From an uncultured Nitrososphaeraceae archaeon (GTDB taxonomy: Archaea > Thermoproteota > Nitrososphaeria > Nitrososphaerales > Nitrososphaeraceae): a stretch of DNA of 64,000 nucleotides. Made by a program: the position numbers and the translations under genes. Each line of letters starts with the position of its first letter. Position 1 is the stretch's first letter. This document shows, piece by piece, positions 5,354-63,726 of this stretch. The notes under the pieces are model-generated. The model worked only from the letters and a program-made list of their open reading frames with translations. It was not told the origin of the DNA and did no database searches. The stretch lies in NCBI GenBank assembly GCA_963729045.1, contig CAVSMN010000008.1, forward strand, positions 36,444 to 100,443, in the 5' to 3' direction.

Positions 5354-7170
5354 ATGAGTAGAAAAAATATACTTGTTCTTGGAATAAATGATGGACATGA
5401 CGCTGGAGATGCTTTGGTTTAAAACGGGCAGGTAATAATTGCTGTCCATGAAGAGCAGATAAACAATGATAAAGGTTTCAGAGGAATACATGAAAAGGCT
5501 ATTCCAAAGGTTTTTGACATTTCTCATACAAATCCATCAGATTTAAATTTGATTGCCTTGGCTAGTTACTATCCACCAGGAGGAGAAAATCTAAAAGCAT
5601 TATCGACCAAGTCATTGATACGACTCAGCCCATTACTCCATTCGGATTCTTTTATCAAATTTTACTTAAGGTATATCAAAAACAAAAGGAACTTTGAAAA
5701 GTTTGAAAAAATTTTTAAAAGTTTAGGAATAAATCCTAACCAGATTGAAACAACAATAATTGAACATCAACTTGCTCATGCTTCTGCTGCATATAGAAGT
5801 TCTCCATTTGGATATAGCAAAGAAGATATACTAATTGTCACTGCTGATGGTTCAGGCGACGGATTATCTTCATCTGTAAACATAGGTATTACGAATAAAA
5901 CGGACAGCAGCGTGGTCCTACAAAAGGAAACTATAGGAGATATAAAAAGAATTGCTTCTTCATCCTATTACGATTCGATAGGCAATGCATTTTATACAGA
6001 AATAACAAAATATTTGGGACTAAAACCATGGGAACATGAAAGTAAGGTGATGGGTCTAGCACCATACGATAAACCAGAATACTGTATAGACAAAAAGAGG
6101 AAAATGATAAAAATAAATGCATCTCATAATCTAAGAATTAAAAACACCATAGGTCCCTTTGGATAGGAGGGTCTGCGATACAATGTAGATTAAGTAAATT
6201 ATTGCAGAATCAAAGATTTGATAATGTTGTTGCTGCTGCACAACAACATCTCGAAGAGTTGATGAAAAAATGGGTTAGTAATGCTGTTAAAAAAACAGGT
6301 ATCAGGAAAATTGTTTGTGCAGGTGGAATTTTTTTGAATGTAAAAATGAATATGATTCTAAGAAAGTTTTTGCAAAGTTTTTCCTCTAGCAATGATGAAA
6401 ATGGAATGATTTTTGTATATCCTGCTCCTGACGATAGCGGGCTTCCAGTCAGATGTGATATGGAAGGGTATTATCAGTATTGTAAAAGAGACGGAAAGGA
6501 ACCATTAAGTGTTAAGGTTGAACATACCTACTATAGACATTCCAATAGCAACGATGAGATTAAAGACATAATAAAAAAATGCAATGAAAAAAGTAATAAC
6601 TTTAATTCTAATGGTATCAATGGTAAGTTCAATTACGATTACTATGATGACATTGATGGTATGGCGGGTGAACTTCTTTCAAAGGGTAAAGTTCTTGCTA
6701 GGTGTACAAGTGGTGGTGAATGGGGTCTCTGAGCTCTTGGAAATAGGTCTATTATTGCAGATCCTCAAGATAGTAATACGATACACAAAATTAACTTTGC
6801 TATCAAACAGAGGGATTTTTGGATGTCTTTTGCTCAGTCTATGCTGTATGAAAGAAGCTAGTATTAGATTGTTGATCTCTAATATGCACCATACATGATA
6901 ATGGCATTTGATTTGACAGAAAAGGGACAGATACTCTTACCAGCTGCGATACCTCCATATGATAAGACTTGTCGATCTCATAATATCAAAAAGCAATGCC
7001 ATAGAGGCTATTACAAAATCATTAAAACATTAGAAAAAATAACAGGGATTGCATCTGTCTTAAATATTTCATTTAATCTACATGTATATCCTATTTTGGA
7101 TTCCCCTGATGTAAAACTTTGGACTTTGGAGAACTCAAGGTTAGACGGACTTTTTTTGGATACTATTTAG
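5354..7170 (+). pseudogene. Carbamoyltransferase (NodU/CmcH family), fragmented
   Basis: LGINDGHDA, EHQLAHASAAY, ADGSGDG, HESKVMGLA, AGGIFLNVKMN, PAPDDSG, EWGL*ALGNRSIIADP, LNISFNLH; several stops and frameshifts. Confidence 0.9.
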
Positions 7171-11237: not shown

Positions 11238-11278
11238 TCACTTAGTATTTCAGACGACTATCCATATTCCGAAGTATA

Positions 11279-15623: not shown

Positions 15624-15672
15624 AGATTCCCTGTTTTTATAGCAAGGCTTCGAGTCCCCCAACTTCGTCTGG
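15624..15672 (+). repeat. Family A site A4
   Basis: AGATTCCCTGTTTTTATAGCAAGGCTTCGAGTCCCCCAACTTCGTCTGG; the next ~45 bp also match those after A7. Confidence 0.8.
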
Positions 15673-15909
15673 TTTTGTATTGTTCAACTTATCAAGTTCT
15701 TGTTTCTTAAGAAAAAAATTTACTCTACTTAGGTATAACAGATCGAATGTAATTATCCCACTTTTTACATTGGATCGGACTTATATATCTAAGAATCATG
15801 TACCCTGTAGATATCGTATAGATATAAGATAGATAGTAAAAAAGAAGTTCATTTTTCTGCTAAAAAACTTGCAACTGATGAAATAGTTTGGTATACTATT
15901 TTCTAATAT

Positions 15910-16356
15910 ATGAGACTTGGATCAACTGTATTGGCTGTTGCTTTGGTACTATTTGGTCTCTTGGCTATATACAGTTTATCGATATCAGATTTGTTATCCA
16001 AGGTTAATTCCTTTGTTTATAACGATCATGAAAAACCCGAAATACACTACTATGCAGATAGAATGTCTACCGCCCAGGAACCATTAGATAATACTCTGGT
16101 AGAAATCGTAAAGAGTTTTAAGAATTCTTCGGGATTTTACAAAATAAATGGAACTTTAGAAAATCAAGGTGCAATAATTCTTTCAGATATCCAAGTTATA
16201 AAATATTATAAAGTTCCTTCAGTGAATGATACTACTTTGATATGCTATGAGCAAAATATTGTAAATTGCCAGTACAAGTTAAATGATCCTCAGTTACCTT
16301 CCAAAGGTTTTTTCTTAATGATGCCGCCAGCACCACCAGAAATAAACATCAATTAG
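15910..16356 (+). CDS. Hypothetical protein with N-terminal TM/signal
   Basis: 148-aa ORF, hydrophobic N-terminus. Confidence 0.65.
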   Translation: MRLGSTVLAVALVLFGLLAIYSLSISDLLSKVNSFVYNDHEKPEIHYYADRMSTAQEPLDNTLVEIVKSFKNSSGFYKINGTLENQGAIILSDIQVIKYYKVPSVNDTTLICYEQNIVNCQYKLNDPQLPSKGFFLMMPPAPPEININ

Positions 16357-16449
16357 ACTTGATGACTTTATCATTTCATAAAAAAATGAGATCGTATGCT
16401 TTATAGATTAACATATCTATCTTAAAGTCTAATAAATATGCTAGATTAG

Positions 16450-16779
16450 TTGCCTAATCCTCCTCATACACAATCACAATTCCTTTATCTAACGACTAAA
16501 GGATGGAAATCAGGAAAATTACATAAAATAGAAATTTGGTTTGTTGAGCAAAATAAGAAATATTATGTTTTATCAGAGTATAAAAAGAAAGTACACTGGG
16601 TTCAGAATATCCTTCACGATCCTACCATATCTTTTCATGTAGATAATCAATCATTCCACGGTTATGGACGGGTAATTGAAGATGCTGTAGAGACAGATTT
16701 GATTAATAGAATTTCACAGATGATGGATAAGAAATACGGATGGAGCGATGGATTAATAGTGGAATTATGTTCTTCATGA
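16450..16779 (+). CDS. Deazaflavin (F420)-dependent nitroreductase-like / split-barrel protein
   Basis: LYLTTKGWKSG..HKIEIWF, HWVQNILHDP. Confidence 0.75.
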   Translation: MPNPPHTQSQFLYLTTKGWKSGKLHKIEIWFVEQNKKYYVLSEYKKKVHWVQNILHDPTISFHVDNQSFHGYGRVIEDAVETDLINRISQMMDKKYGWSDGLIVELCSS

Positions 16780-17008
16780 GTTAAATACAATATATACATA
16801 TTGACATAATCTTTTTTCAACCATAGTTCAAAATATTTAGAATTTATTAACTAGAACCAAAGTATTTGAATGGAGATTCTCATTAAGAACTTCGATCATG
16901 GTAACGAAAAAAATCTTTTCTTCTTTATTTTATCTAACAGAATATCTAGTATTCTTAATGTAATTGCTATAAAAAGATTTATAATTTCATCAAGTCTAAG
17001 TCAGGCTA

Positions 17009-18715
17009 TTGTATATTGTTTCTAAAACGATACAATTCTTTTCAATCATTGTAATTTTGTCAGTTTCTTTGGTTTCTCTTTTCCCCCTGACAACTTCATA
17101 CCTCGAAGGATCCGATTCATGGAATACAGGCTTTGCTTTTGCTCAACTTACTAATAACAATATTATCCAGATTGTAAGCACTTCTACCTTTACAGATGAC
17201 TTTGGTAATTTTCATGTTATAGGTGAGGTAAATAACACATCAATAGACCCCCAAACAAATATCATAATTACTGCACTTTTATCTGATACAAACAACAATG
17301 TTTTAGTTGGAAATCACTCTGCATTCTCGTCAATATCGAACTCTTAGACAAACCGAACTATCTCCATTTGATATAGTAATACAGGATCCTCAGATATTAG
17401 GCAAGTTTAACTTTATGGAATTTTCTACTACTTCGCAACCTGCAATAGAGAAACCAGCAAACCTTGTATTAAATGGAACAAGTGCCTTTTTAGACAATAT
17501 TGGAAACCCTCACATCACTGGTAATATAATCAACCAAGGACAGTCACCTGAACAATTCTTAAATCTAGTTGCAACATTCTATGATAATTCAAGTCTAGGA
17601 GTTGTAGGGACTCAAAGTTTTGGCCTAAATGTTGGCAACTTATCTCAAAATCAGATGACACCATTTGATATCACTATCTTAGATAACAAGACAAAATCTC
17701 AAGGCAAGTTCTATTCCCTAAACATGGATTCTACTCAAAGTTCAATGAGCTTTTCCAACCAATACAAAGTTTCTTTTTAATAATGATGGTTTTGGGGGTG
17801 AGAATGGTACAGATTCATTGATAGTGGTGGATTATTTGTCTACAACTCCCACTACCGTTTAAGTGATAATCAGGGGATAGTAAACGATGACACTGGCCAA
17901 TCATACTCATGGATCTAGTAATGGTAATTCTGGTAGCATCGTCAGGAAATGACTTAGAAATAAGACATTGATGAGCAGAAACTTATAAGTCGGATATCAA
18001 TGACCTATAATGACTTTGATGGTGACAATAGATGGCAGGAGGATTGTGAAGTCTATGAGGGTGATTTGATAATAAAGGACGTTTAGCAAGGTGAGTGAAC
18101 ATTAAATGTGTAAATATTCAGATGGAAACAATTGTGACGGTTGGAATCAACGACTTTTAAAGTAATTAAGAATCTTGATGAACTGATGGCACGGCAAGTC
18201 AGGACAGTGCAAGATACGGAAGATAATAACACACATTGATAATGACAACCAGGAAAAAGTGATGATTTGGACTGTGGAGACATCGGGGATACAAATATCC
18301 CAGTTGGCAGCGATGACCCGAATAATCTTGACGCTGATGGTGACGGGATAGGATGCGGAAAAATGCGAGTGATACCCAAACAATAATGATGAGAATATAC
18401 AACAATGAAAACACAGCGATGAAAGTAATCCATGTACAGGATCGGAGAAGCTAATAGTATCGGATTCTACAAGTAATGGAGACAATGATGCAAATGATGA
18501 CTGGAACGATCAGAAAATAGATGAAGTGACCTCAGTGAATACGAGCGACAAGTGAGGAACGGTGAGGACTAATGCTGACGGCAAAAGGATGTAAATGAAA
18601 GCGAGAACATAATGATAATGAAGGTATCGAAGACAGAATCACAATTCTGAGGAATCAGATAACAAGAAGCAATGATAGTGACGATGAACCAGAAAGTGAA
18701 GAAAACGACAATTAA
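17009..18715 (+). pseudogene. Secreted FxLYD-domain protein with Excalibur-like motif and acidic tail, copy 1 (many indels)
   Basis: FHVIGEVNN, LVATFYDN, DPNNLDADGDGIGC in shifting frames; paralog of 42069..43436. Confidence 0.75.
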
Positions 18716-18802
18716 ACTGGATAATAACCGAGTTTAAGGGATGCCCAAGGAATCCCATCGTCATGGTCTATTAGTTATTGTATCCTCAGCAATGCAATCG
18801 AT

Positions 18803-18840
18803 AATTATAGTCAAATTTGAACCATATCCCCACGCGCCCA
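18803..18840 (+). repeat. Family C site C1
   Basis: AATTATAGTCAAATTTGAACCATATCCCCACGCGCCCA. Confidence 0.7.
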
Positions 18841-18935
18841 AACTCAGTGATCTCTGAAATGGTAAATATACAATGACTCGATTGGGTTCGCGTTACATTT
18901 GTGTCGGACAAATGAACTGTTAAATTTCTTTCTAC

Positions 18936-19403
18936 TTGACTATTATTTTTTCAAAATCAAATCTTTATTTGCTCCGGAAAATTATATTTAAATCAAGAAT
19001 AACAATAGGATATATGGCTCTTTCTGAATCATTTGTAAACCAGCATGTGAAAAATTGGATTGATGGCTGGAATAACCACGATATAAAAACAGTATTATCT
19101 ATGTATTCGGAAAATATTGAATTCTCTAGCCCTAAAGTCAAAGTTGTATTTCCAGATCGCACCTCATCAAAAATATCTAACCAAAAAGAATTAGAGGAAT
19201 ATTGGTCAAAAGCCTTGAAAAATAACTTTCCTTCACTGAATTTTACGCCCAAAGAAGTATTGATACAAGAAAACAAGATTCTACTTGAATACTATGCAAC
19301 ATTGGATGGTAAACATAGAACATCTGTTATTGAGAAATTTGAATTTCAAGATGGATTGATTACAAAGTCCAGTGTATTTTATGGTTCTGAGGAAACTATT
19401 TGA
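18936..19403 (+). CDS. SnoaL-like / NTF2-fold protein (likely start ATG 19014)
   Basis: WIDGWNNHDIKTVLSMYSENIEFSSP. Confidence 0.85.
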   Translation: MTIIFSKSNLYLLRKIIFKSRITIGYMALSESFVNQHVKNWIDGWNNHDIKTVLSMYSENIEFSSPKVKVVFPDRTSSKISNQKELEEYWSKALKNNFPSLNFTPKEVLIQENKILLEYYATLDGKHRTSVIEKFEFQDGLITKSSVFYGSEETI

Positions 19404-19504
19404 TGGTGTAACAATACAATCAAATCCTAATATGTCTCAATTAGATGATTCACCACAAGCGTCAGGTTTAAAGTTAAAAAATAACTCAGCCTGACAATAG
19501 AATA

Positions 19505-20266
19505 TCAACTATCGATACTTCCTACCCTGAGGTTTAGATCCCATTTTACTAGTTTTATTTCATCATCCTTTCCCCACAAATTCTTCAAATCTTCTTTGAC
19601 TACACTCAATGGGTCGCATTTATTTTCCGCATAGAATCTTTTTACTGCTGACCACGTTTGCATGTAATCAAAAAGATTATTAAGATTCCAGTCTACTTTT
19701 ATCTCAAATTTGGGAACCTCAATTTCCTTAAAAGGGAACGGTATTGTTTTGTATTCTTCTTTTACAAATTTGACTTCTTTTGGCCAATAGTTTCCGAGAA
19801 TATCTCCGCCAACATTGAGTCTTTCACTTATTTTGTCAATTTCAGGGCTAATTTTTTGCATTCCATAGGCCCATACTGCTATTATTCCACTACTTCGGCT
19901 TACTCGTCTGGCTTCTCGATAAAACATCTCAAAGTCAAACCAGTGAACTGCCATCGCTACAGTGATTAGGTTAACAGAGTTGTTTTGGATATTGGGTTTC
20001 TCTGCAGGAAACACCTCATAGTTGATGTTGTCCCGATCAAATGCGTTATCAATTTGATTCTTGCTTGCATCGCTTGCTATCACCTTTTTAAAGTATTTGC
20101 AAAGGCTTATGGCGGCCTGTCCGTTTCCTGTCGCACAATCCCAAGCCAGATCCTTAACAGGAGTAATCTCATTTAGAAATTTAAAAAGATCCTCTGGATA
20201 TTTTGGTCTAGCATAAGAATATTCTCTGGATTTTGAGGAAAAATGGTTGACAGTACCTGGTGTCAT
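19505..20266 (-). CDS. Class I SAM-dependent methyltransferase
   Basis: YSYARPKYP, AWDCATGNGQAA, AVHWFD. Confidence 0.92.
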   Translation of the reverse strand: MTPGTVNHFSSKSREYSYARPKYPEDLFKFLNEITPVKDLAWDCATGNGQAAISLCKYFKKVIASDASKNQIDNAFDRDNINYEVFPAEKPNIQNNSVNLITVAMAVHWFDFEMFYREARRVSRSSGIIAVWAYGMQKISPEIDKISERLNVGGDILGNYWPKEVKFVKEEYKTIPFPFKEIEVPKFEIKVDWNLNNLFDYMQTWSAVKRFYAENKCDPLSVVKEDLKNLWGKDDEIKLVKWDLNLRVGSIDS

Positions 20267-20630
20267 GCATTTAATTTATTTTATTTATCAAAAAACCTTT
20301 TTGTCTAGGATTGATCATTGTGAAATAGATTCCTTTGATATTTATCCTCCATAATTTTCAATAAATAACCGTCCGAATCGTCCAATCGTCCTATAATACT
20401 TGACACAGTAAAGAAATGAGCACAATTGTGCTAAATAACCGAATATTTGCAATTGACGATACTATTGAGTTTCCAGATAACCGTCAATGATTTAATGGTG
20501 CCGGATTAGACAAGAGGCGCTCTGTATTGAAATTTGATGTATGTTGCTTTCTCTTAAATCATTAGATCTTTGTAATGGTTGACTTTGATTTTGTTTACAT
20601 ATGAATGTACCGGCCATCACTTTTAACGTT

Positions 20631-20668
20631 GATTATATTCAACCTTGAATCACATCCCCACGGATGTA
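20631..20668 (+). repeat. Family C site C2
   Basis: GATTATATTCAACCTTGAATCACATCCCCACGGATGTA. Confidence 0.8.
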
Positions 20669-20691
20669 TTTAGCATTATGTGAAGAGAAAC

Positions 20692-21177
20692 TTAATCAAA
20701 AATGAATCTCCAGTTATAATTACTTTCTAACAAATGAACTATAACTGGATCAAACTGTATAGACTTTTTAAAATCCTCCATCGTGGATGTTCCTAGTTCT
20801 CTGAAAAAGTTTTCCAATCCTGCAGGAGTGTATGTTACAAGTAGTTTGCCCTGATCATTTCCAATTTTTCTATAAGAATGACTTTTATCTTTTTCAAATC
20901 TTAACACCGTATCCTTATTTCCTTCTAGAGTTTCTTTTCCGTATCTAAAGGAAAAATTGCCTTCAATCACGTGCATTACCAATGCTTCGTTTCCGTGCTT
21001 GTGTAAAGGTACTTCTGACTCTTCACCTGGAGGAAAGGTAATTTCAATTATCGAATATTTATTTTGAGTCTGATTTCCAGATACAAGAATTTTATAAATT
21101 ATTCCATTTAGAATATATTGTTCAATCGATTTGTAGTCTTGGGAAAAGACTTCATTATCCTTTTCATCGCTCATCAT
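20692..21177 (-). CDS. Cupin domain protein, copy 1
   Basis: PLHKHGNEALVMHVIEG...HSYR...PAGLENFF. Confidence 0.88.
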   Translation of the reverse strand: MMSDEKDNEVFSQDYKSIEQYILNGIIYKILVSGNQTQNKYSIIEITFPPGEESEVPLHKHGNEALVMHVIEGNFSFRYGKETLEGNKDTVLRFEKDKSHSYRKIGNDQGKLLVTYTPAGLENFFRELGTSTMEDFKKSIQFDPVIVHLLESNYNWRFIFD

Positions 21178-21383
21178 TAATCATTACTTATTAGGGTAAA
21201 TTTATTAATATTTAAATAATTTCCAAATCCTTGATTAACACCACTTAAATTATTAGAATGTATGCATGCTACTGCTACAATTCAAATAATTTGTATGGGT
21301 GAAACTGACAGATTATTAAACAGGCCATAAAGTCTTATAAGAATTCAAGCACGATGATTTATTTTTCAATGGATATAATACCC

Positions 21384-21423
21384 GATTATATTCAATCTTG
21401 AACCGTATCCCCACAGATGTATT
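21384..21423 (+). repeat. Family C site C3
   Basis: GATTATATTCAATCTTGAACCGTATCCCCACAGATGTATT. Confidence 0.8.
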
Positions 21424-21581
21424 CAAGCAAAGAAATTCAGAAATTGGCTAGAGTTCTACTCTGTATTATTATTGACCATATATGATACATCTGATCTGAT
21501 GTATTTCGTAGTTTTTGAGTTATTAATTTTTCCAATTATGGAGAGCACTTGTCGCAGCATAATGTACACTCATTATGTCCA

Positions 21582-22841
21582 TTATTTGACATAAAGAACA
21601 CTTGTGGAATTAGGCTTTAATTGATCAATGGTAATTATTGTCTTGTCCTGCTCGTCATAAACCACATCTTCTTTTACTAACTGTAGTACCTTGTCTACTT
21701 TAAAAGAGATTTCTTCAATCAACTCATTGCCTGATTTTATAGTTATCTTTTGACCTGTAATTGCAATATTAATTTTTTTTATCTTTCTTATTCGTTGGTA
21801 TAAATCGAAGAAAGTTGTCTTCCATGAAAAGGGAATTTTATTGAACAGATGTAAAATTTGATTCCACTGTTCAAACAAGTTTTTTCTAGTAATAGAATCA
21901 TGATTCCAATCATAAAAATAATGATGATAGTGGTTTAGAATACCTAGAGGTGTTCTTTGAACCATGGAATAAGAGATGGTATTGGATATCCATTTTACAA
22001 ATGTTTGTGAAGATTCTTGTTCTTTTTCTGCATTTTTATTGGAATTTGATATAGGATTTATTTTTAGCCTTCTAGGGATATATAGCATTATTCCCTGACT
22101 ATGCTTGTTATTATAGTAATCGACATTAGACATGATAAAGGGAATAATAAATCCCACATTGGCAAATTTTTTTAAAAGTTTACTTGCAAAATATTTTTTA
22201 AAATAACTGGGAACGTATGATGATCTAAAAAATCTATGGTAGTTTGATTGTCCATAGATAGGAATCATGCCAAGACTTGATAGGAGATTTAGATTGTGCG
22301 TAGAAAAGTCATCAAATGGAGGAACAAACAAAACTGGATTAATATCAAAGGATTTTCTTATTATATCCCTTCCAATATTTACATAGGATTCAAAGCCTAT
22401 CTTGTTGTTCTTTTCATAACCATCAGTATTTAGTGACCTGTAATAATGAGTAAATGTATCTTTTATAGTTCTGTTTATATCTTCACTCTTTCCGTCAATC
22501 TGCTGACTAAACTCTCCTCGACCATCAATTAAATCATGAGTTACACCATGTTGAATAATCTCAATCTTACTGTGTCTGATCTTTTCTTTTAAAAATGTGC
22601 ATAATTCTTCATTGTTCTCAATGGAATGATGTTCTGGAGAGTTCCTGAAATCAGGTGGGACACAAGCATCATTAATTGTCTTTTGATAAGGTATCACAGA
22701 TAGACTTACTTTGAATTGATTATTCCATGCGTTAGAATATATTGATTCGAGCATATTGCTTTTTGTAAAAAAATTAGTATCATCATCTCGAATTAAAATA
22801 GGAATTTTACCGTTGGGTCCTAGTAGTGGAGTAATCGTCAT
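21582..22841 (-). CDS. DUF2334 / polysaccharide deacetylase-like protein
   Basis: LIRDDD, SLSVIP, EIIQHGVTH, GEF, LFVPPF. Confidence 0.8.
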   Translation of the reverse strand: MTITPLLGPNGKIPILIRDDDTNFFTKSNMLESIYSNAWNNQFKVSLSVIPYQKTINDACVPPDFRNSPEHHSIENNEELCTFLKEKIRHSKIEIIQHGVTHDLIDGRGEFSQQIDGKSEDINRTIKDTFTHYYRSLNTDGYEKNNKIGFESYVNIGRDIIRKSFDINPVLFVPPFDDFSTHNLNLLSSLGMIPIYGQSNYHRFFRSSYVPSYFKKYFASKLLKKFANVGFIIPFIMSNVDYYNNKHSQGIMLYIPRRLKINPISNSNKNAEKEQESSQTFVKWISNTISYSMVQRTPLGILNHYHHYFYDWNHDSITRKNLFEQWNQILHLFNKIPFSWKTTFFDLYQRIRKIKKINIAITGQKITIKSGNELIEEISFKVDKVLQLVKEDVVYDEQDKTIITIDQLKPNSTSVLYVK

Positions 22842-23069
22842 CTATTGCTAAAGAAATCATTAATGCTTTTAAATCGTCCATTATCATCATACTCTAATGG
22901 ACCATGTTTATATCAGATAATCATATCATATCATCAGTTTTTGAGGGCTATCTATTTTTACTTCCTACAAGTTGCTGAAATAAATTAAAAATGAATAGTT
23001 AAGGAAATGACATATCTCATAAATCAATATGTCTAGTATGCGATGTTAAATTAAGGAATTTTTAAAAAA

Positions 23070-23345
23070 ATGAATTCTAATCATGTAAAGCGAATTGATT
23101 TCACTAAATCGGTAGAATATGATGATAAGGAGGATGTTTATTATGTGAAATCGGTTACTTCAGGAGAGAGATATAAGGTTAATAAATTAAAGGATAATAA
23201 CCATTGGTTTTGCACATGTAAAGGATATTTGTATTCGGCTGGAAACCCCAAGAAATGCAAACATACTCAAAGAATTAGAGTTATTGATCAGTTGTATAAA
23301 AAATATGCTGATAAGATTACAAACTTCGAATTAAAAGATAGATAA
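23070..23345 (+). CDS. SWIM zinc-finger protein
   Basis: WFCTCKGY...KCKH. Confidence 0.75.
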   Translation: MNSNHVKRIDFTKSVEYDDKEDVYYVKSVTSGERYKVNKLKDNNHWFCTCKGYLYSAGNPKKCKHTQRIRVIDQLYKKYADKITNFELKDR

Positions 23346-23428
23346 TTGATCTTCATTAATGTGAACGTTATAGACGTCTATTAATTTTTTATATGGAGAT
23401 TCTGCCTCGGTTACATAACTAAACCTTA

Positions 23429-23624
23429 CAAAAGATCTATAGTTGATTCATGATTTAGATAGGTATTGTTTTTTTGCACAGGATTATAATCAACCTTGAA
23501 CCGTATCCCCACGGGCCCGGACCTTGAAAGATCTATAGTTAATTCATGATTTAGATAGACATTGTTTTTTTGCACAGGATTATATTCAACCTTGAACCGT
23601 ATCCCCACAGGGCCCGGACCTTGA
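23429..23624 (+). repeat. Tandem duplication of a ~96-bp unit, each ending in a family C site (C4, C5)
   Basis: 2x AAAGATCTATAGTT..TTCATGATTTAGATAG...GCACAGGATTATA.TCAACCTTGAACCGTATCCCCAC(A)GGGCCCGGACCTTGA. Confidence 0.92.
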
Positions 23625-23660
23625 TTAGTCAACCAGTTGAAAGAGTAGGAGGCTTTTTTT

Positions 23661-23710
23661 GTTGGAACCCACGTCAGAAAGACGTAGATCCGAGTCCCAC
23701 TCCCGGCGCC
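23661..23710 (+). repeat. Family A site A5 with tRNA-Ser-like 3' end (att-like)
   Basis: GTTGGAACCCACGTCAGAAAGACGTAGATCCGAGTCCCACTCCCGGCGCC; no D or anticodon arm upstream. Confidence 0.85.
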
Positions 23711-23773
23711 TAAAACAGGGAATCATACCATATTTTTATATAATTTGACGAATATCATCAAGTTATTAGTAAA

Positions 23774-24022
23774 TTGTCAGATGTGGTCGATCAAATAACT
23801 TTAGGATTATCTAGACCTTATTTTCGTAACATCCTAAAGAAATTACGTGAAAACAACCAAGAAAATGCATACACAATATGTAAACATATTCTAACTGAAC
23901 AAGCCGAATTTAATATCAAGAATAGCACAAAGGAGGGAAAATTAGGATATTGGTACGGCTCTCAAACTTTTTTGACGATAGAAAAAGATACCAAGACATG
24001 ATCAAAGAAGATATTTTTTTTA
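23774..24022 (+). pseudogene. Truncated N-terminus of a Nitrososphaerales-type tyrosine integrase
   Basis: DQITLGLSRPYFRNILKKLRENNQENAYTICKHILTEQAEFNIKNSTKEG then, after a frameshift, KIRILVRLSNFFDDRKRYQDMIKEDI; recognised from recall of the family, catalytic domain absent. Confidence 0.6.
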
Positions 24023-24194: not shown

Positions 24195-25792
24195 TTATTT
24201 TTTTAAAGGTAAACTAAAACTAAATGTAGCACCATTACCGTCCCTATTGTTTTCAGCCCAAATCTTTCCGCCATGAGCTTCTATTATGCTTTTTGATATA
24301 TACAAACCCAAACCAGTTCCAATAAATGAATTTGAAACAAATTTTTTAAATAAATATGGCATTATTTCCAGATCAATTCCTAATCCTGTATCTATTACGG
24401 CAATTACGACTTCGCTATTATTTTTTTTCTCCATTGTTACAGCTATCGATCCTTTTGTTGTAAACTTTATTGCATTATTTACAAGATTTGACAATACTTG
24501 AGTTATTCTATTTTTGTCTCCTTTTACAACTACGTGACCCTTTGGTGACATCTTTAATTTACCATCGTCATTTTCTTTATTGTTAAAGTCATTTTTACAT
24601 ACAAATAATACATTTTCTTTCTTTTTTTCCATATCTATTGTACAATCATTTATTGTATTTGATATGACGTCAAGAAGATCAAATTCTCCTATGTCAAGCT
24701 TCAATTCATTACTTTCAATTTTAGTTACATCTAGAATATCGTCGGTCAGTTTTTGTAACCTTCTTGCATTTCTATATATGATTGACACACCACGTTCTAT
24801 TTCTTTCATATCAACATGTTTTTTATTTTGAAAATCTCCATTAAGCATTCCTGAAAGCCCGATAATTGGTTGAATCGGTGTTCTCAATTCGTGAGCAGAA
24901 ATGTTTAAGAATTGATCTTTCATCTTTTCTGCTTCTTTGACTTTTATATATTGATTTCGTATAAGAGCATTGCTTTTTTTTAAATTCTTGGTATAGTGTA
25001 TACTAGATAAAGCAAGTGCTATGATGTTGACAAAATATCCCGCATCTTTAATCACATGAGCTAGGTTATGCGCAGTATCAAAAGAAACGGCAGAAAAAGA
25101 CATTATGATTTGAGCGAATATGTCAATTATGAGATAAATAAGAATACCTTTATAAAGAACGTCTTTTTTTAGGTAAAGTCGTTTTTTATAGAAAAAGAAC
25201 AAAGCAAGGACAAACAATATCAGAGGTGGAATCTCATAGGGCCTATGAACGGAGTAATCATCTAAAACAGAGGCAGGAAAGACCAAAAATAGTGAGCTCA
25301 AAGCAATACTAGATGCCAATACACCTAAAATTATTATATATAGAATGGAGTTGTCTATTATATTTTTTTTAGATTTTTAGAGGGGTTGATCTTTTGATCA
25401 GTATCATACTGTTTATCAAGATTGACAAGGTCTTCTTCTTCTTCTTTAGATGTGTATGAATATTTCACTACTGCAATTAAGAGCATAGCGCTGAGAAAAA
25501 ATCTTCCTGCAAACCATGTTTGAGGAATGAAATACTTCAAGAAATCAATATTTTCAATTAGTGTTATTGATACTATTACGTGTAACATATCAATTAATCC
25601 GCTAATTAGAAATCCGATACCAACAAAAAGGCTAAAATTGTCCTTTAAAACTCTTGCACGCAGAATATAATAGAAAGCTAATGCTGAAACTAAAATAACT
25701 GCAAATAATTCAATATAAAAATGATGGATTTCTGATGCCACCCACAAAAAAGGATCAAAAGATATGATAGTTAGTATTATGAGAGGTATCAT
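24195..25792 (-). pseudogene. Membrane sensor histidine kinase (MASE3-like N-terminus), split by one frameshift
   Basis: SAHELRTPIQP, QVLSNLVNNAIKF, DTGLGI, GTGLGL; adding one A to the A8 tract at ~25363-25370 joins ORFs 25358..25792 and 24195..25319. Confidence 0.85.
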
Positions 25793-31104: not shown

Positions 31105-31270
31105 CTATAAAATATTGCAGAACGGTCTTAACAAACTCTAATATTTATTATTCATATTATTGTATGTACATCAAATATTGACTATTCAAAGCTACAGGTC
31201 GAATCGAATGGCATCAGTTACCGGATGTTACCAATAGTAGATCAATATTTGTTATTCATTCAAACCTTTT
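31105..31270 (+). repeat. ~165-bp duplication, copy 2 (downstream flank and last codons of the aquaporin)
   Basis: Matches 9474-9642. Confidence 0.9.
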
Positions 31271-31949
31271 TTCTACAGATTAATGCAATCATTGCAGTAC
31301 CCACAAATGTTGCTGTCCAGTATAACCATAGATCAGTCCATACACCAGATAATAACGCTGGTGCCAAAGAACGTGCAGGGTTCATTGACAATCCAGATAT
31401 AAAAGTCAAAAACAAAATATCTAGTCCAACAATACCTCCGATAGCGATACCGCTGAATCCCTTCAAACCTTTTGTATAAACTACAGTCAATATCACTGCC
31501 ATTAATAGAGCTGATGCCAAAACTTCTGTTCCAAATATTAGAGGTAAAGGATATGAATAGTTAGGAGAGTTAGCTCCTAGACTTGCCTCATTACCTATTA
31601 CTATACTCACAAAAAGACTTGCTAGAAAAGCACCAACTATCTCCGCCAAAAGATACAAAACTAGTAGCTTTTTTGTGATGTGCTTTGTGATTAAAAATCC
31701 AACAGATACAGCAGGGTTAAAATGAGCCATAGAGATTTTTCCAAAAAGATATACACCTATTGCAACGCCCACAAAAGGAGCAAATGCAACAAATGGTAGT
31801 CCAAGAATACCATTTAACTTTGCATTAATAACTACCGAACCTGTAGCTAAAACAACAACGACAAACGTTCCCACCAGTTCTGCGATAAACCTTTTTTGAT
31901 TAGTAGATAGCTTGCTAACTACAGATTCAAAAGTAGATTCCTTTGACAT
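31260..31949 (-). CDS. MIP/aquaporin family channel (probable arsenite efflux)
   Basis: AHFNPAVS and SMNPARS motifs; in operon with arsC and arsM. Confidence 0.92.
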   Translation of the reverse strand: MSKESTFESVVSKLSTNQKRFIAELVGTFVVVVLATGSVVINAKLNGILGLPFVAFAPFVGVAIGVYLFGKISMAHFNPAVSVGFLITKHITKKLLVLYLLAEIVGAFLASLFVSIVIGNEASLGANSPNYSYPLPLIFGTEVLASALLMAVILTVVYTKGLKGFSGIAIGGIVGLDILFLTFISGLSMNPARSLAPALLSGVWTDLWLYWTATFVGTAMIALICRKKV

Positions 31950-32009
31950 GATTATTTACTAGGAGTTACTTGGATTCACTTTAACTGAACGAAATAAAGT
32001 GCTATTATC

Positions 32010-32462
32010 TTAAATTGGAATTTTATTGTCTCTGGCAGAGTCAATTATTTCCAATACTCTTTTTTCAATTTCATCTCTTATTTGTCTCACTTTCTCTATC
32101 GGCTTGTCTTTTGGATCTTCAATACCCCAGTCTATAACTTTTGGTAAAAATAATGCAGGACAGTATTTATCGTCCATACAACCCATATTGATTATGGTTG
32201 TTGCATTTCGCATCATATCTTCTGTCAAATCTTTAGGCTTTTGACTGCTGATGTCTATTCCAACCTCTTTCATAACATCTACTGCAATCGGATTAATTTG
32301 AGAAGTTGGAACTGTACCTGCACTAACCGTTTCGTAGCCTTTTGGTGCATACTTTCTAAAGAAACTTTCTGCCATCTGACTTCTCCCCGCGTTTTGAACG
32401 CATACAAAGAGGATAGTTTTTTTTGTATTATCGGAGGATTTTTTGCCAAATGAAAATTTCAT
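32010..32462 (-). CDS. arsC: Arsenate reductase (LMW-PTP/thioredoxin type)
   Basis: FVCVQNAGRSQMAE, SAGT, MGC...CP, WGIEDP. Confidence 0.92.
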   Translation of the reverse strand: MKFSFGKKSSDNTKKTILFVCVQNAGRSQMAESFFRKYAPKGYETVSAGTVPTSQINPIAVDVMKEVGIDISSQKPKDLTEDMMRNATTIINMGCMDDKYCPALFLPKVIDWGIEDPKDKPIEKVRQIRDEIEKRVLEIIDSARDNKIPI

Positions 32463-32488
32463 CTATATCACTTCTCTTGCTAACCGTC

Positions 32489-33295
32489 TTACTTTTTAAC
32501 AGCCTTGATGGAGATACTAGTAATTTGTCTTTTTTCTTGATTTTCTTGTTCTTTGCCTTCATCTAACTCCATATATAATTTCTCTTCTAGTATCTCAATG
32601 TTGGTAAATCCAGCTTTTTTAATACTATCAATGTAGTTTTCTTTTGTTAATGCACCATCAATACAACTGCACCAATTATCCGTATTAACAGAATCTAGAT
32701 CTATTTCCTTAGAAGTAACTAGATCTGATATAACCATTTTTCCTTTTCCTTCTGATTTAAGGATTCGGTAAATTTCTTTGAACGTATTTTCCTTATTTGT
32801 TGTTAGATTAATAACGCAGTTGCTAATAACTAAGTCAACAAAATTATCTTCAACAGGTATTCTTTGTTCAATATCTCCCTGTCTGAACTCGACGTTGGTA
32901 TATCCATGTTTTTCAGCATTTTCTCTTGCTTTGTTGAGCATATTTTTTGTCATATCAATTCCAATGACTTTTCCGCTTTCTTTTACCAAATTGGCTGCAA
33001 GAAATACGTCAATCCCTGCTCCTGAACCTAAGTCGACTACGTTATCACCTTCATTAATATCTGCAAATCTAGTGGGATTTCCACATCCTACTCCTAATAC
33101 AGAAGTTTCAGGAATCAACTTTAGTTTATCTGAATCATACCCCACAGTCTTTGATGATTCAAATGGAGAAAGTATAATTTCAGATGTACCGCAGCAGTCC
33201 TTAGAGGGCATACAACAAGAATTAGAATTTCCGTCTAGTGCAATCTTTCCATATTGTTCTTTAATCTTCTCCTTTAATTGTAATTGTTTATCCAT
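32489..33295 (-). CDS. arsM: Arsenite S-adenosylmethionine methyltransferase
   Basis: N-terminal CC pairs, LGVGCGNP, VDLGSGAGID, ISNCVINL, WCSCIDGA. Confidence 0.9.
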   Translation of the reverse strand: MDKQLQLKEKIKEQYGKIALDGNSNSCCMPSKDCCGTSEIILSPFESSKTVGYDSDKLKLIPETSVLGVGCGNPTRFADINEGDNVVDLGSGAGIDVFLAANLVKESGKVIGIDMTKNMLNKARENAEKHGYTNVEFRQGDIEQRIPVEDNFVDLVISNCVINLTTNKENTFKEIYRILKSEGKGKMVISDLVTSKEIDLDSVNTDNWCSCIDGALTKENYIDSIKKAGFTNIEILEEKLYMELDEGKEQENQEKRQITSISIKAVKK

Positions 33296-33352
33296 AGATA
33301 TAGGTTTACAAAGGAAACTATTTAAATTGGTAAGAGTAAAATGGTAAAGTAA

Positions 33353-33778
33353 GTGAAGTCAAGGAAACTAAAGGGAGACATACTGAATAAAGCCACATTG
33401 GAATCAAGTAAATTACCTATCCTCAAGGAAAATAATTCTTGTAATTTCTATGGTTATGATGTGGAAAATCTAATGAAAGAAACATCTGAATTAAGAAAGA
33501 TAATTACTAAGAGAGGGACGTTAGAAATATTGATTCCTCTTTGCTGTTCTACTGACCCAGTCAGATACTTGACATTTAGAAAGTCAATGAAAGGTTTCAG
33601 CAGTAAGACTCTCACAATACGATTAAAGGAGTTGGAAAAAAGTGGTATCTTAAACAGACAATCCTTTAATGAGATTCCTCCCAGAGTGGAATACCGGTTA
33701 ACTCCGAAAGGTCAAGAACTTGTGGAATCTATAATTAATTTACTTCAATGGATGCGAAAATGGTCCGTAAACAATTAA
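33353..33778 (+). CDS. HxlR-family winged-helix regulator, divergent from the ars genes
   Basis: SSKTLTIRLKELE...EIPPRVEYRLTPKG; contains a CC pair. Confidence 0.88.
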   Translation: MKSRKLKGDILNKATLESSKLPILKENNSCNFYGYDVENLMKETSELRKIITKRGTLEILIPLCCSTDPVRYLTFRKSMKGFSSKTLTIRLKELEKSGILNRQSFNEIPPRVEYRLTPKGQELVESIINLLQWMRKWSVNN

Positions 33779-38023: not shown

Positions 38024-38070
38024 CGAAGTTGGACCCCAAGTCTGAAAAACAGAGATTCGAGTCCCAGCCC
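38024..38070 (+). repeat. Family A site A9
   Basis: CGAAGTTGGACCCCAAGTCTGAAAAACAGAGATTCGAGTCCCAGCCC. Confidence 0.8.
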
Positions 38071-38101
38071 TATCTTTTTTTCGTTTTGTAAATAGAGAAA
38101 C

Positions 38102-38586
38102 TTAATCAAAAATAAATCTCCAGTTGTAATTGCTTTCTAACAAATGAACTTTAATTGGATCAAACTCTATAGACTTTCTATTATCATCAATCTTGGAAAG
38201 TCCTAATTCTCTAAAAAAGTTTTCCAATCCTCCTGGAGCATATGTTACAAGTAGTTTGCCCTGATCATTTCCAATTTTTCTATAAGAATGACTTTTATCT
38301 TTTTCAAATCTTAACACCGTATCCTTATTTCCTTTTAAGGTTTCTTTTCCGCATCTAAAGAGAAAATTGCCTTCAATCACGTGCATTACCAATGCTTCGT
38401 TTCCGTGCTTGTGTAAAGGTACTTCTGACTCTTCACCTGGAGGAAAGGTAATTTCAATTATCGAATATTATTCTCAGTTTGATTGCCAGATACAAGAATT
38501 TTAAAGATTATCCCATTAAGATTATATTGCCTATTTAATTTGTTGTAGTCTTGGGAAAAGGCTTTGATATCCTTTTTATCGCTCAT
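38102..38586 (-). pseudogene. Cupin domain protein, copy 2 (frameshift near 38470)
   Basis: Long stretches identical at DNA level to 20692..21177. Confidence 0.88.
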
Positions 38587-38735
38587 CACTCATCATTTAC
38601 TTATTTGGGAACATTAATATTTAAATAATTGTAGAATCTTACAACTAGGTTCAGAAAATTTTGTAGTCTGTAGAACTCAAGAAGATATATATAGACTCAT
38701 GCTTTTAGAATTGACTGAACTTTTTGGTGTGTACT

Positions 38736-62777: not shown

Positions 62778-63726
62778 TTAGTCTTGTGCTAACGCATTAT
62801 TCCCGCTATTTACTTGATTTTGGAAACTAGCGTTGTTACAAGAAACAGTTGCATCTTCACCTGAAACACATTGGGAATTCTGTTCACTGTCTTGATCTTG
62901 GCCTATACCTTGGTCAGCATCATTACCGTCATTGCCATTATTACCGTTTCCGCCTCTTGAGCAGCTGCATTGTTTCCATCATTATCCTGGTTTTGGACAC
63001 TTACGTTGTTACAAGAATTACCCAGACTACCACCAGATACACATTGGGAATTCTGTTTTGACGATTGAGATTGGCCTATACCTTGGTCAGCATCATTGCC
63101 GTCATTGCCATTATCACCGTTTCCGCCTCTTGGGCCAGCTGCATTGTTTCCATCATTATCCTGGTTTTGGACACTTACGTTGTTACAAGAGTCATTTGTA
63201 TCGTCACCTGAAACACATTGGGAGTTTTGACTTGAAGATTGAGATTGGCCTATACCTTGGTCAGCGTCATTGCCGTCATTGTCATTATCACCGTTTCCAC
63301 CTCTTGGGCAGCTGCATTGTTTCCATCATTATCCTGGTTTTGGACACTTACGTTGTTACAAGAGTCATTTGTATCATCACCTGAAACACATTGGGAGTTT
63401 TGACTAGACGATTGAGATTGGCCTATGCCTTGTGAAGCACTGTTTCCATTGCCGTTATTGCCATTATTGCGTTAATCATCTTCGTCGATAGTTTTAGAAC
63501 CAAAATCACCATCATAATCGTCATCATAGTGTGCTCTTAGGTTCTTGTCACATGCTTCTTCATTATCTTCATAGTAATCTTCGTCATCCTTACATTGACC
63601 AATATCCACTCCATAGTGTGCGAATGCGTTTTGAAAATTGGATGTTGTAGGACCAAGCGTAATTAATGTAGCAAATACTGCTACAACTAATACTGCAGTT
63701 AATTTTGTGTTATTTGACTTTAACAT
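62778..63726 (-). pseudogene. Secreted N/Q/S/G-rich tandem-repeat protein, apparent frameshifts
   Basis: Signal peptide (ORF 63472..63726) then four units like GNSASQGIGQSQSSSQNSQCVSGDDTNDSCNNVSVQNQDNDGNNAAAQ. Confidence 0.75.
62800..63460 (-). repeat. Tandem repeat, ~174-bp unit, about 4 copies
   Basis: CACATTGGG anchors at 62867, 63040, 63214, 63387 (spacing 173, 174, 173). Confidence 0.92.

Follow-up and report, generated by a model that had tools for sequence, protein, structure and literature searches.

A 64,000-nt stretch of contig C8 from the assembly of an uncultured Nitrososphaeraceae archaeon (hereafter the window and G000) contains five copies of a short repeat, the C repeat, which separate small packets of genes. 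The fourth copy ends in ATCCCCACGGGCCCG, the final 15 nt of tRNA-Lys(UUU) on contig C9 of G000, matching at 15 of 15 positions. The block of C repeats lies inside a larger array whose sites belong to another tRNA, tRNA-Ser(CGA), and a conserved linker joins the two site types. We consider it probable that passing elements supply integrases which work in trans on such junctions, and that Ser-addressed units carrying a Lys-type site seed Lys-type sub-arrays in Ser islands. Other labels beginning with G or L denote the other genomes and contigs compared.

C repeats and the 3' end of tRNA-Lys

The C repeats start at 18803, 20631, 21384, 23482 and 23578, all in one orientation. They differ from the original 31-mer at 5, 3, 1, 1 and 0 positions, respectively, and 100 shuffles gave a chance expectation of 0.00 for the four copies within 3 mismatches. 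By sequence, the sites form an 11-6-11 inverted repeat, with two 11-nt arms and a 6-nt spacer. Their right ends diverge after the core and read, from copy 1 to copy 5, GCGCCCA, GGATGTA, AGATGTA, GGGCCCG and AGGGCCCG. Both the positions and the divergent right ends agree with the original prediction, which had been made from the letters of this DNA.

All five sites are on the plus strand. In site 1 (18803..18833) the left half resembles a sister arm family, F, and the right half is C-type. Sites 2 (20631..20661) and 3 (21384..21414) are followed by site 4 (23482..23512), whose exact tRNA-Lys(UUU) tail occupies 23505-23519, and by site 5 (23578..23608), whose tail has one extra A. Sites 4 and 5 are the two halves of a single 96-bp tandem duplication (23431..23614, plus strand; 88 nt at 93% identity) that doubles the last C site. 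The five predicted copies therefore all exist but amount to only four independent junctions. Contigs from three of four sequencing runs (X1, X6 and X8, each from another study) skip the duplication.

The prediction that the repeat ends in the 3' end of a host tRNA is borne out by the tRNA-Lys match in G000, but the tRNA is not Arg-like as had been supposed. The Arg(UCG)-type tail, named after a row in the supplement of PMC6563490, matches 12 of the 15 nt, and tails of the Arg type agree only in the last 8. At C sites other than site 4, only 8-9 nt of the tRNA core are kept, and other left arms (D, F and H) share this core. We notice that the tail could restore the acceptor stem (GGGCCC) at only 12 of 338 C sites, the commonest other tails being GCGCCC (61) and GGATGT (22). 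This suggests that the array sites, and not the tRNA, are the point of entry for most packets. ARAGORN reported no tRNA in the window; the tool also misses the intron-bearing tRNA-Ser(CGA) upstream. Arrays of tail copies are also seen for tRNA-Gly(CCC), spaced 1-3 kb apart, at G000:C13:91703-106100 and C10:119000-170558.

The C family had been described as confined to 5 kb. This holds within the window but not genome-wide, as G000 contains 19 copies at a score of at least 18 (three shuffles gave 0, 1 and 0), and the home array of the family lies behind tRNA-Lys. The motif occurs in 11 of 14 genomes of the same genus, with 0 to 23 copies per genome and three genomes without it, and in 0 of 106 other genomes of the family. 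In the genome collection, all 80 matches listed, out of 95, belong to Ca. Nitrosocosmicus, Nitrososphaeraceae or Nitrososphaerales. Metagenomes contain the motif in at least 139 stretches, and viral contigs gave no exact match to its degenerate form.

C sites lie 3' of tRNA-Lys in the same orientation in G032, G043, G001 and G054, four of the five genomes examined; in the fifth, G073, the region is split by contigs. In the closed genome G043, 37 of 37 C sites are co-oriented over 120 kb, and in the closed genome G032, 34 of 37 over 140 kb, with a tyrosine integrase in the tRNA-Lys-proximal element of both arrays. No C site falls inside an open reading frame (ORF; 0 of 69), though ORFs cover 57-59% of the sequence. 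The next gene lies on the same or the opposite strand relative to the site in 15 and 14 cases in one set and in 14 and 10 in the other, and the median gap between sites of all families is 2.2 kb. In the Lys arrays of G043 and G032, pairs of C sites 122-126 bp apart flank a conserved gene-free unit with an inverted T-arm-like motif that may be one more docking site.

A Lys-type block within the tRNA-Ser island

The intron-bearing tRNA-Ser(CGA), which we located by eye at G000:C8:35552-35690, lies 750 bp before the window and anchors its Ser-type array. A position weight matrix (PWM) scan found 12 co-oriented Ser-type sites in the window; with the tRNA just upstream, the C block therefore lies in a Ser island. 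The segment containing the block is bounded upstream by a Ser-type att site at 15624..15659 (plus strand; G000:C8:52067 in the PWM scan). Downstream, a Ser-type site with its right arm (23664..23725, plus strand) carries an exact tRNA-Ser(CGA) tail. From the core of this site on, 336 bp match, at 92% identity, the DNA right behind tRNA-Ser in G073, the start of an integrase included. The site is thus a displaced tRNA junction, and the DNA upstream of it probably arrived by the Ser system. The original prediction had proposed a second specificity nested in the first array, and a Lys-type sub-array inside a Ser-type array is what we observe.

The ends of contigs C8 and C9 overlap by 2 kb at 97.7%, which would place tRNA-Lys about 270 kb downstream in the same orientation. 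Two C sites also occur in the Ser island of G043, which shows collinearity with the window from 36.5 kb on, and two packets of the window stand in the Lys island of that genome.

Between the last C site and the downstream Ser-type site lies the 55-bp exit linker (23609..23663, plus strand), in which the Lys tail is followed by about 48 bp leading into the Ser-type site. This link between the two site types was no part of the original prediction. A foreign site occurs within 150 bp upstream of 14 of 38 Ser sites, against 0.56 expected. The exit linker, conserved in the genus, forms one family of 12 copies in 6 of 34 genus genomes (two each in G000, G043 and G130, four in G123, and one each in G122 and G124), with a further copy on a metagenome contig, L184. 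Aligning ten of them revealed a constant linker and a near-perfect tRNA tail, with a left arm that switches at the core among the C, D, F and Arg types. A reciprocal entry linker of 22 bp, in which the Ser core leads directly into a C site, was found in five copies in 4 of the 34 genomes. On G130:C92 the entry and exit linkers are joined as an empty 153-bp Ser-C-Ser unit; in the other four copies of the entry linker, ordinary downstream DNA comes after the C site.

Other stacked sites are present in these islands. Sites of a third family, with a Leu-like core, precede Ser sites by 65-93 bp in seven adjacent pairs, forming another stacked address pair; they occur at 11278, 28498 and 53770 of the window and in the Ser island of G043. 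Three site types (inverted Gly-type, C and Ser) stand within 200 bp at G000:C16:119860-120040 and on L434, an arrangement kept in two genomes. Tandem repeats of 173-174 bp occupy 62782-63439 of the window, at the contig end; G043 and G001 have them in their Ser islands as well.

Reassortment of flanks and cassettes

An association of the C motif with indel boundaries, anticipated in the prediction, is seen as the reassortment of flanks at the sites, and the window's packets recur elsewhere in other orders. Pairwise comparison of the 338 C sites gave 271 pairs with a single flank in common (the upstream one in 138 pairs, the downstream one in 133) against 28 pairs that share both. At control positions shifted by 200-260 bp the relation is reversed, with 1-30 one-flank against 55-81 both-flank pairs. 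The DNA directly behind the true tRNA-Lys in G000 stands behind a C site in L332. Sites with the D arm share downstream DNA with a C site via the Lys core in 5 of 43 cases, and upstream DNA in 0 of 43. Both observations demonstrate that exchange within the tRNA core occurs.

Three cassettes lie between the C sites of the window. The SnoaL-methyltransferase cassette (18834..20630) contains a SnoaL-like gene (18936-19403, plus strand) and a methyltransferase gene (19505-20266, minus strand). It is 94% identical to G043:215186-213324, where it has C sites at both ends and other neighbors; the homology with G043 begins at C site 1. The cupin cassette (20662..21383, minus strand; cupin gene 20692-21177) is homologous to G073 up to C site 3, at which homology with G043 begins. 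Cupin paralogues stand behind Ser-type sites at window position 38031 and in G043, which makes the cupin cargo acquired from the Ser system. The two cupin copies of the window, at 20684-21221 behind a Lys-type site and at 38094-38630 behind a Ser-type site, are 89% identical.

The DUF2334-SWIM cassette (21415..23481) carries a DUF2334 gene (21582-22841, minus strand) and a small SWIM-like gene (23070-23345, plus strand). Its DUF2334 part is 93% identical to G043:200876-199245 and begins at a site in both genomes. The SWIM part is 89% identical to G000:C18, with the homology ending at a C site. Among the predicted cargo, SnoaL, methyltransferase and cupin stand, with SnoaL_2, Methyltransf_11 and Cupin_2 passing the Pfam cut-offs, but the supposed deacetylase matches DUF2334 only and the SWIM match falls under its cut-off (E 0.009). 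Pfam found no integrase in the three cassettes.

Elsewhere in the window, frameshifts split genes at 5549-7170, 17009-17780 and 24195-25792. Single-base differences from the contigs of two to three runs occur at 17748, 17801 and 25370 and suggest assembly errors or strain variants. One Ser-bounded segment (31260-33778) contains, by Pfam, genes of the aquaporin and low-molecular-weight phosphatase families, a methyltransferase gene and an HxlR regulator gene, a set that we take to resemble an arsenic-handling module.

Proposed mechanism, alternatives and known systems

In the mechanism we propose, the C repeat would be a recombination junction of the tRNA-Lys(UUU) integration system of Ca. Nitrosocosmicus. 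It would consist of a palindromic left arm, a tRNA-derived core (ATCCCCACG) and a right end owned by the next piece of DNA. The left arm may serve as the binding site of one lineage of tyrosine integrases. Small packets without an integrase would be added, probably through circular intermediates, at the tRNA or at any array site by an integrase acting in trans. A Ser-addressed unit that bears a Lys-type site near its end, in the linker, would then bring a docking site of the Lys type into the Ser island, where packets of that type would subsequently collect.

In G032, G043 and G054, the element next to tRNA-Lys carries an integrase. In a tree of 28 integrases, we notice a fully supported clade of eight, four members of which share one arm, each with a different tRNA tail. 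We read the left arm as a mark of the integrase lineage and the core as a mark of the address. On L036, L057, L114, L116, L127 and L128, integrases that are close relatives and have one arm in common lie behind different tRNA tails; such combinations suggest easy target switching. The integrase of L124 is a candidate enzyme for the C arm, by arm symmetry only. In the window itself, an integrase-like gene persists as a frameshifted and truncated 5' remnant (23774..24017, plus strand).

Several results weigh against this mechanism. The alignment-end test was marginal, with 20 of 80 ends at sites against an intergenic null with a mean of 8.3 and a maximum of 20. Because this test is weak against that null and took in two arm families only, we used the flank-sharing test with its shifted controls. 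For swaps between C sites in the strictest set, the log-likelihood is highest for spread exchange points (-634.0), lower for the best single point (-675.5) and lowest for the tRNA core (-689.7). The best single crossover is the center of the palindrome, 14 log units above the core. The crossover model behind these values is crude: each cluster (22 and 20 of them in the strictest set) contributes a single pair, and a spread of exchange looks the same to the model as a faster rate of change at degenerate positions. No circle-closing joint between C sites was found among the joints listed from the contigs of four runs, and contigs drop rare forms.

The setting of the block raises further objections. 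G000, and hence the window, has no entry linker. Between the upstream Ser site and C site 1 lie 3.1 kb of cargo without a Lys core, and a search of 15660-18800 for a left-hand junction without the C arm found none. The first site behind the tRNA-proximal element is a C site in G054 and G032, and has other arm types in G001 and G043. A PF00589 scan of G000 gave no match. Since integrases of this kind score poorly on PF00589, we also used tblastn, which found in G000 only matches that are partial, frameshifted or interrupted by stops, and none intact; the assembly is 87% complete and may hold indel errors.

A different history of the block, which we regard as unlikely, is that it moved whole into the Ser island by homologous or illegitimate recombination. 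The linkers would then be idle relics of hybrid events, one or two in number, that happened long ago, and the sites would still be Lys-type att scars. The missing entry linker agrees with such a move, and so do the spread exchange points, a pattern expected of recombination driven by homology. All exit linkers belong to one homologous family, in keeping with a single origin, and the junction at which the cupin was picked up lies 23 bp outside the core, which shows that illegitimate joins happen. However, the linker stands behind four left arms that change exactly at the core, which argues for its re-use as a recombination partner. It also retains the near-perfect tRNA tail that so few C sites keep, and it exists in both empty and filled forms. 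Far less credible, in our view, is that a Xer-type recombinase of the host uses the palindrome as a dif-like site, in the manner of pdif modules or of elements that exploit Xer, with the likeness to a tRNA being secondary. Two 11-nt arms around a 6-nt spacer do match the form of dif (PMC8371274), the best single crossover lies at the palindrome center, and site 1 resembles a chimera of F and C whose join is around that center. But dif is single-copy and conserved, whereas the C motif is missing from three of 14 genus genomes and from the 106 genomes searched in the rest of the family; the arrays begin at tRNA-Lys, only the tRNA core allows swaps with the tRNA itself or with D arms, and spread exchange points fit better than any single point.

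Dozens of co-oriented sites that split off packets of one or two genes might also recall a true integron, with attC sites and IntI, or the target-site scars of casposons, and for this we see very little room. TIGR02249 (IntI) and PF01867 (Cas1) each matched in 0 of 5 genomes, and the sites are direct, not inverted, repeats. The attC sites of integrons fold as single-strand hairpins, and integron genes are co-oriented; the sites here are 31 bp long, one of three tested folds better than shuffles, and the genes run in both directions. The C repeat is palindromic and always intergenic, as would suit an operator through which a transcription factor controls the adjacent genes, but the orientation of the sites follows the tRNA whatever the direction of the genes, a tRNA tail is present and the flanks reassort. 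The reassortment largely refutes the operator explanation, to which we attach almost no weight.

Returning to the trans-acting integrases and Lys-type sub-arrays that we favor, we can tentatively extend the mechanism to several integron-like capture arrays with tRNA tails as addresses and integrases acting in trans. Cargo-free adaptors of about 150 bp (Ser core, Lys site, Ser core) might be selected as address converters, through which cargo could flow between islands, mobilized by whichever integrase arrives. Growth would be mostly site-into-site, with the tRNA no longer needed; we hold this extension to be possible, though doubtful. If the proposal is true, it would account for the way in which 100-kb accessory islands are built and reshuffled, one gene at a time and with no classical integron, in an abundant soil nitrifier, and the short two-address linkers would offer a concrete route for cargo to cross between integrase systems. 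As the genus includes cultured strains and candidate integrases, the mechanism is directly testable.

No description of these Nitrosocosmicus arrays or linkers was found in the literature within reach, which excludes subscription papers and bioRxiv supplements, and the comparisons below draw on parts of the cited texts. The consulted part of PMC13245735 reports integrase-flanked islands in the genus, with att arrays unmentioned there. Krupovic et al. (2019; PMC6563490) described the element ThaMY3-E1 of Ca. N. oleophilus, which spans 27.5 kb and has a single att pair at tRNA-Lys(TTT), and stated in general terms the tyrosine integrase and the tandem re-use of one site. The genus and the tRNA are the same here, and the 18-nt att of ThaMY3-E1 corresponds, on the other strand, to the right part of a C site with its tRNA tail. 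Unlike in the description of ThaMY3-E1, as far as consulted, dozens of further sites, packets without an integrase and nesting between tRNA systems are present in our arrays.

Accretion is known from integrative and conjugative or mobilizable elements (ICEs and IMEs), where cis-mobilizable elements (CIMEs), att-flanked units without an integrase, stack at one tRNA end and are pushed along by newcomers (PMC5704250). The same source reports that chimeric att sites from unrelated integrases recombine. The packets of the window are likewise att-flanked and lack an integrase. In contrast to CIMEs as presented in that source, they are gene-sized units in dozens, most tails could not restore the tRNA, and linkers join different tRNA targets. 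The tycheposon islands of Prochlorococcus grow behind tRNAs, with partial tRNAs and integrase fragments strewn within, and elements also insert beside short tRNA segments elsewhere (bioRxiv 10.1101/2020.12.28.424599). Compared with what is outlined there, the present system differs in its archaeal host and its integrases, and its sites have a conserved arm and regular spacing and bound shuffled packets.

The tripartite, multi-integrase ICEs of Mesorhizobium (PMC5882170) resemble our linkers in that one DNA unit has att sites for several integrases. However, ICE3, from the sections consulted, is large and conjugative and encodes three integrases, whereas the units here measure from 150 bp to a few kb and have none. 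Low-specificity recombination by an archaeal integrase has also been reported (PMC8371274).

Chromosomal integrons share with the C sites a long co-oriented array that splits small accessory packets of changing order. In contrast to them, the system described here has no IntI and no attC-type hairpin, its genes run both ways and its core is derived from a tRNA. It is a tRNA-anchored accretion island that works like an integron array and is not an integron, and what it adds to the known systems is nesting via conserved two-address linkers.

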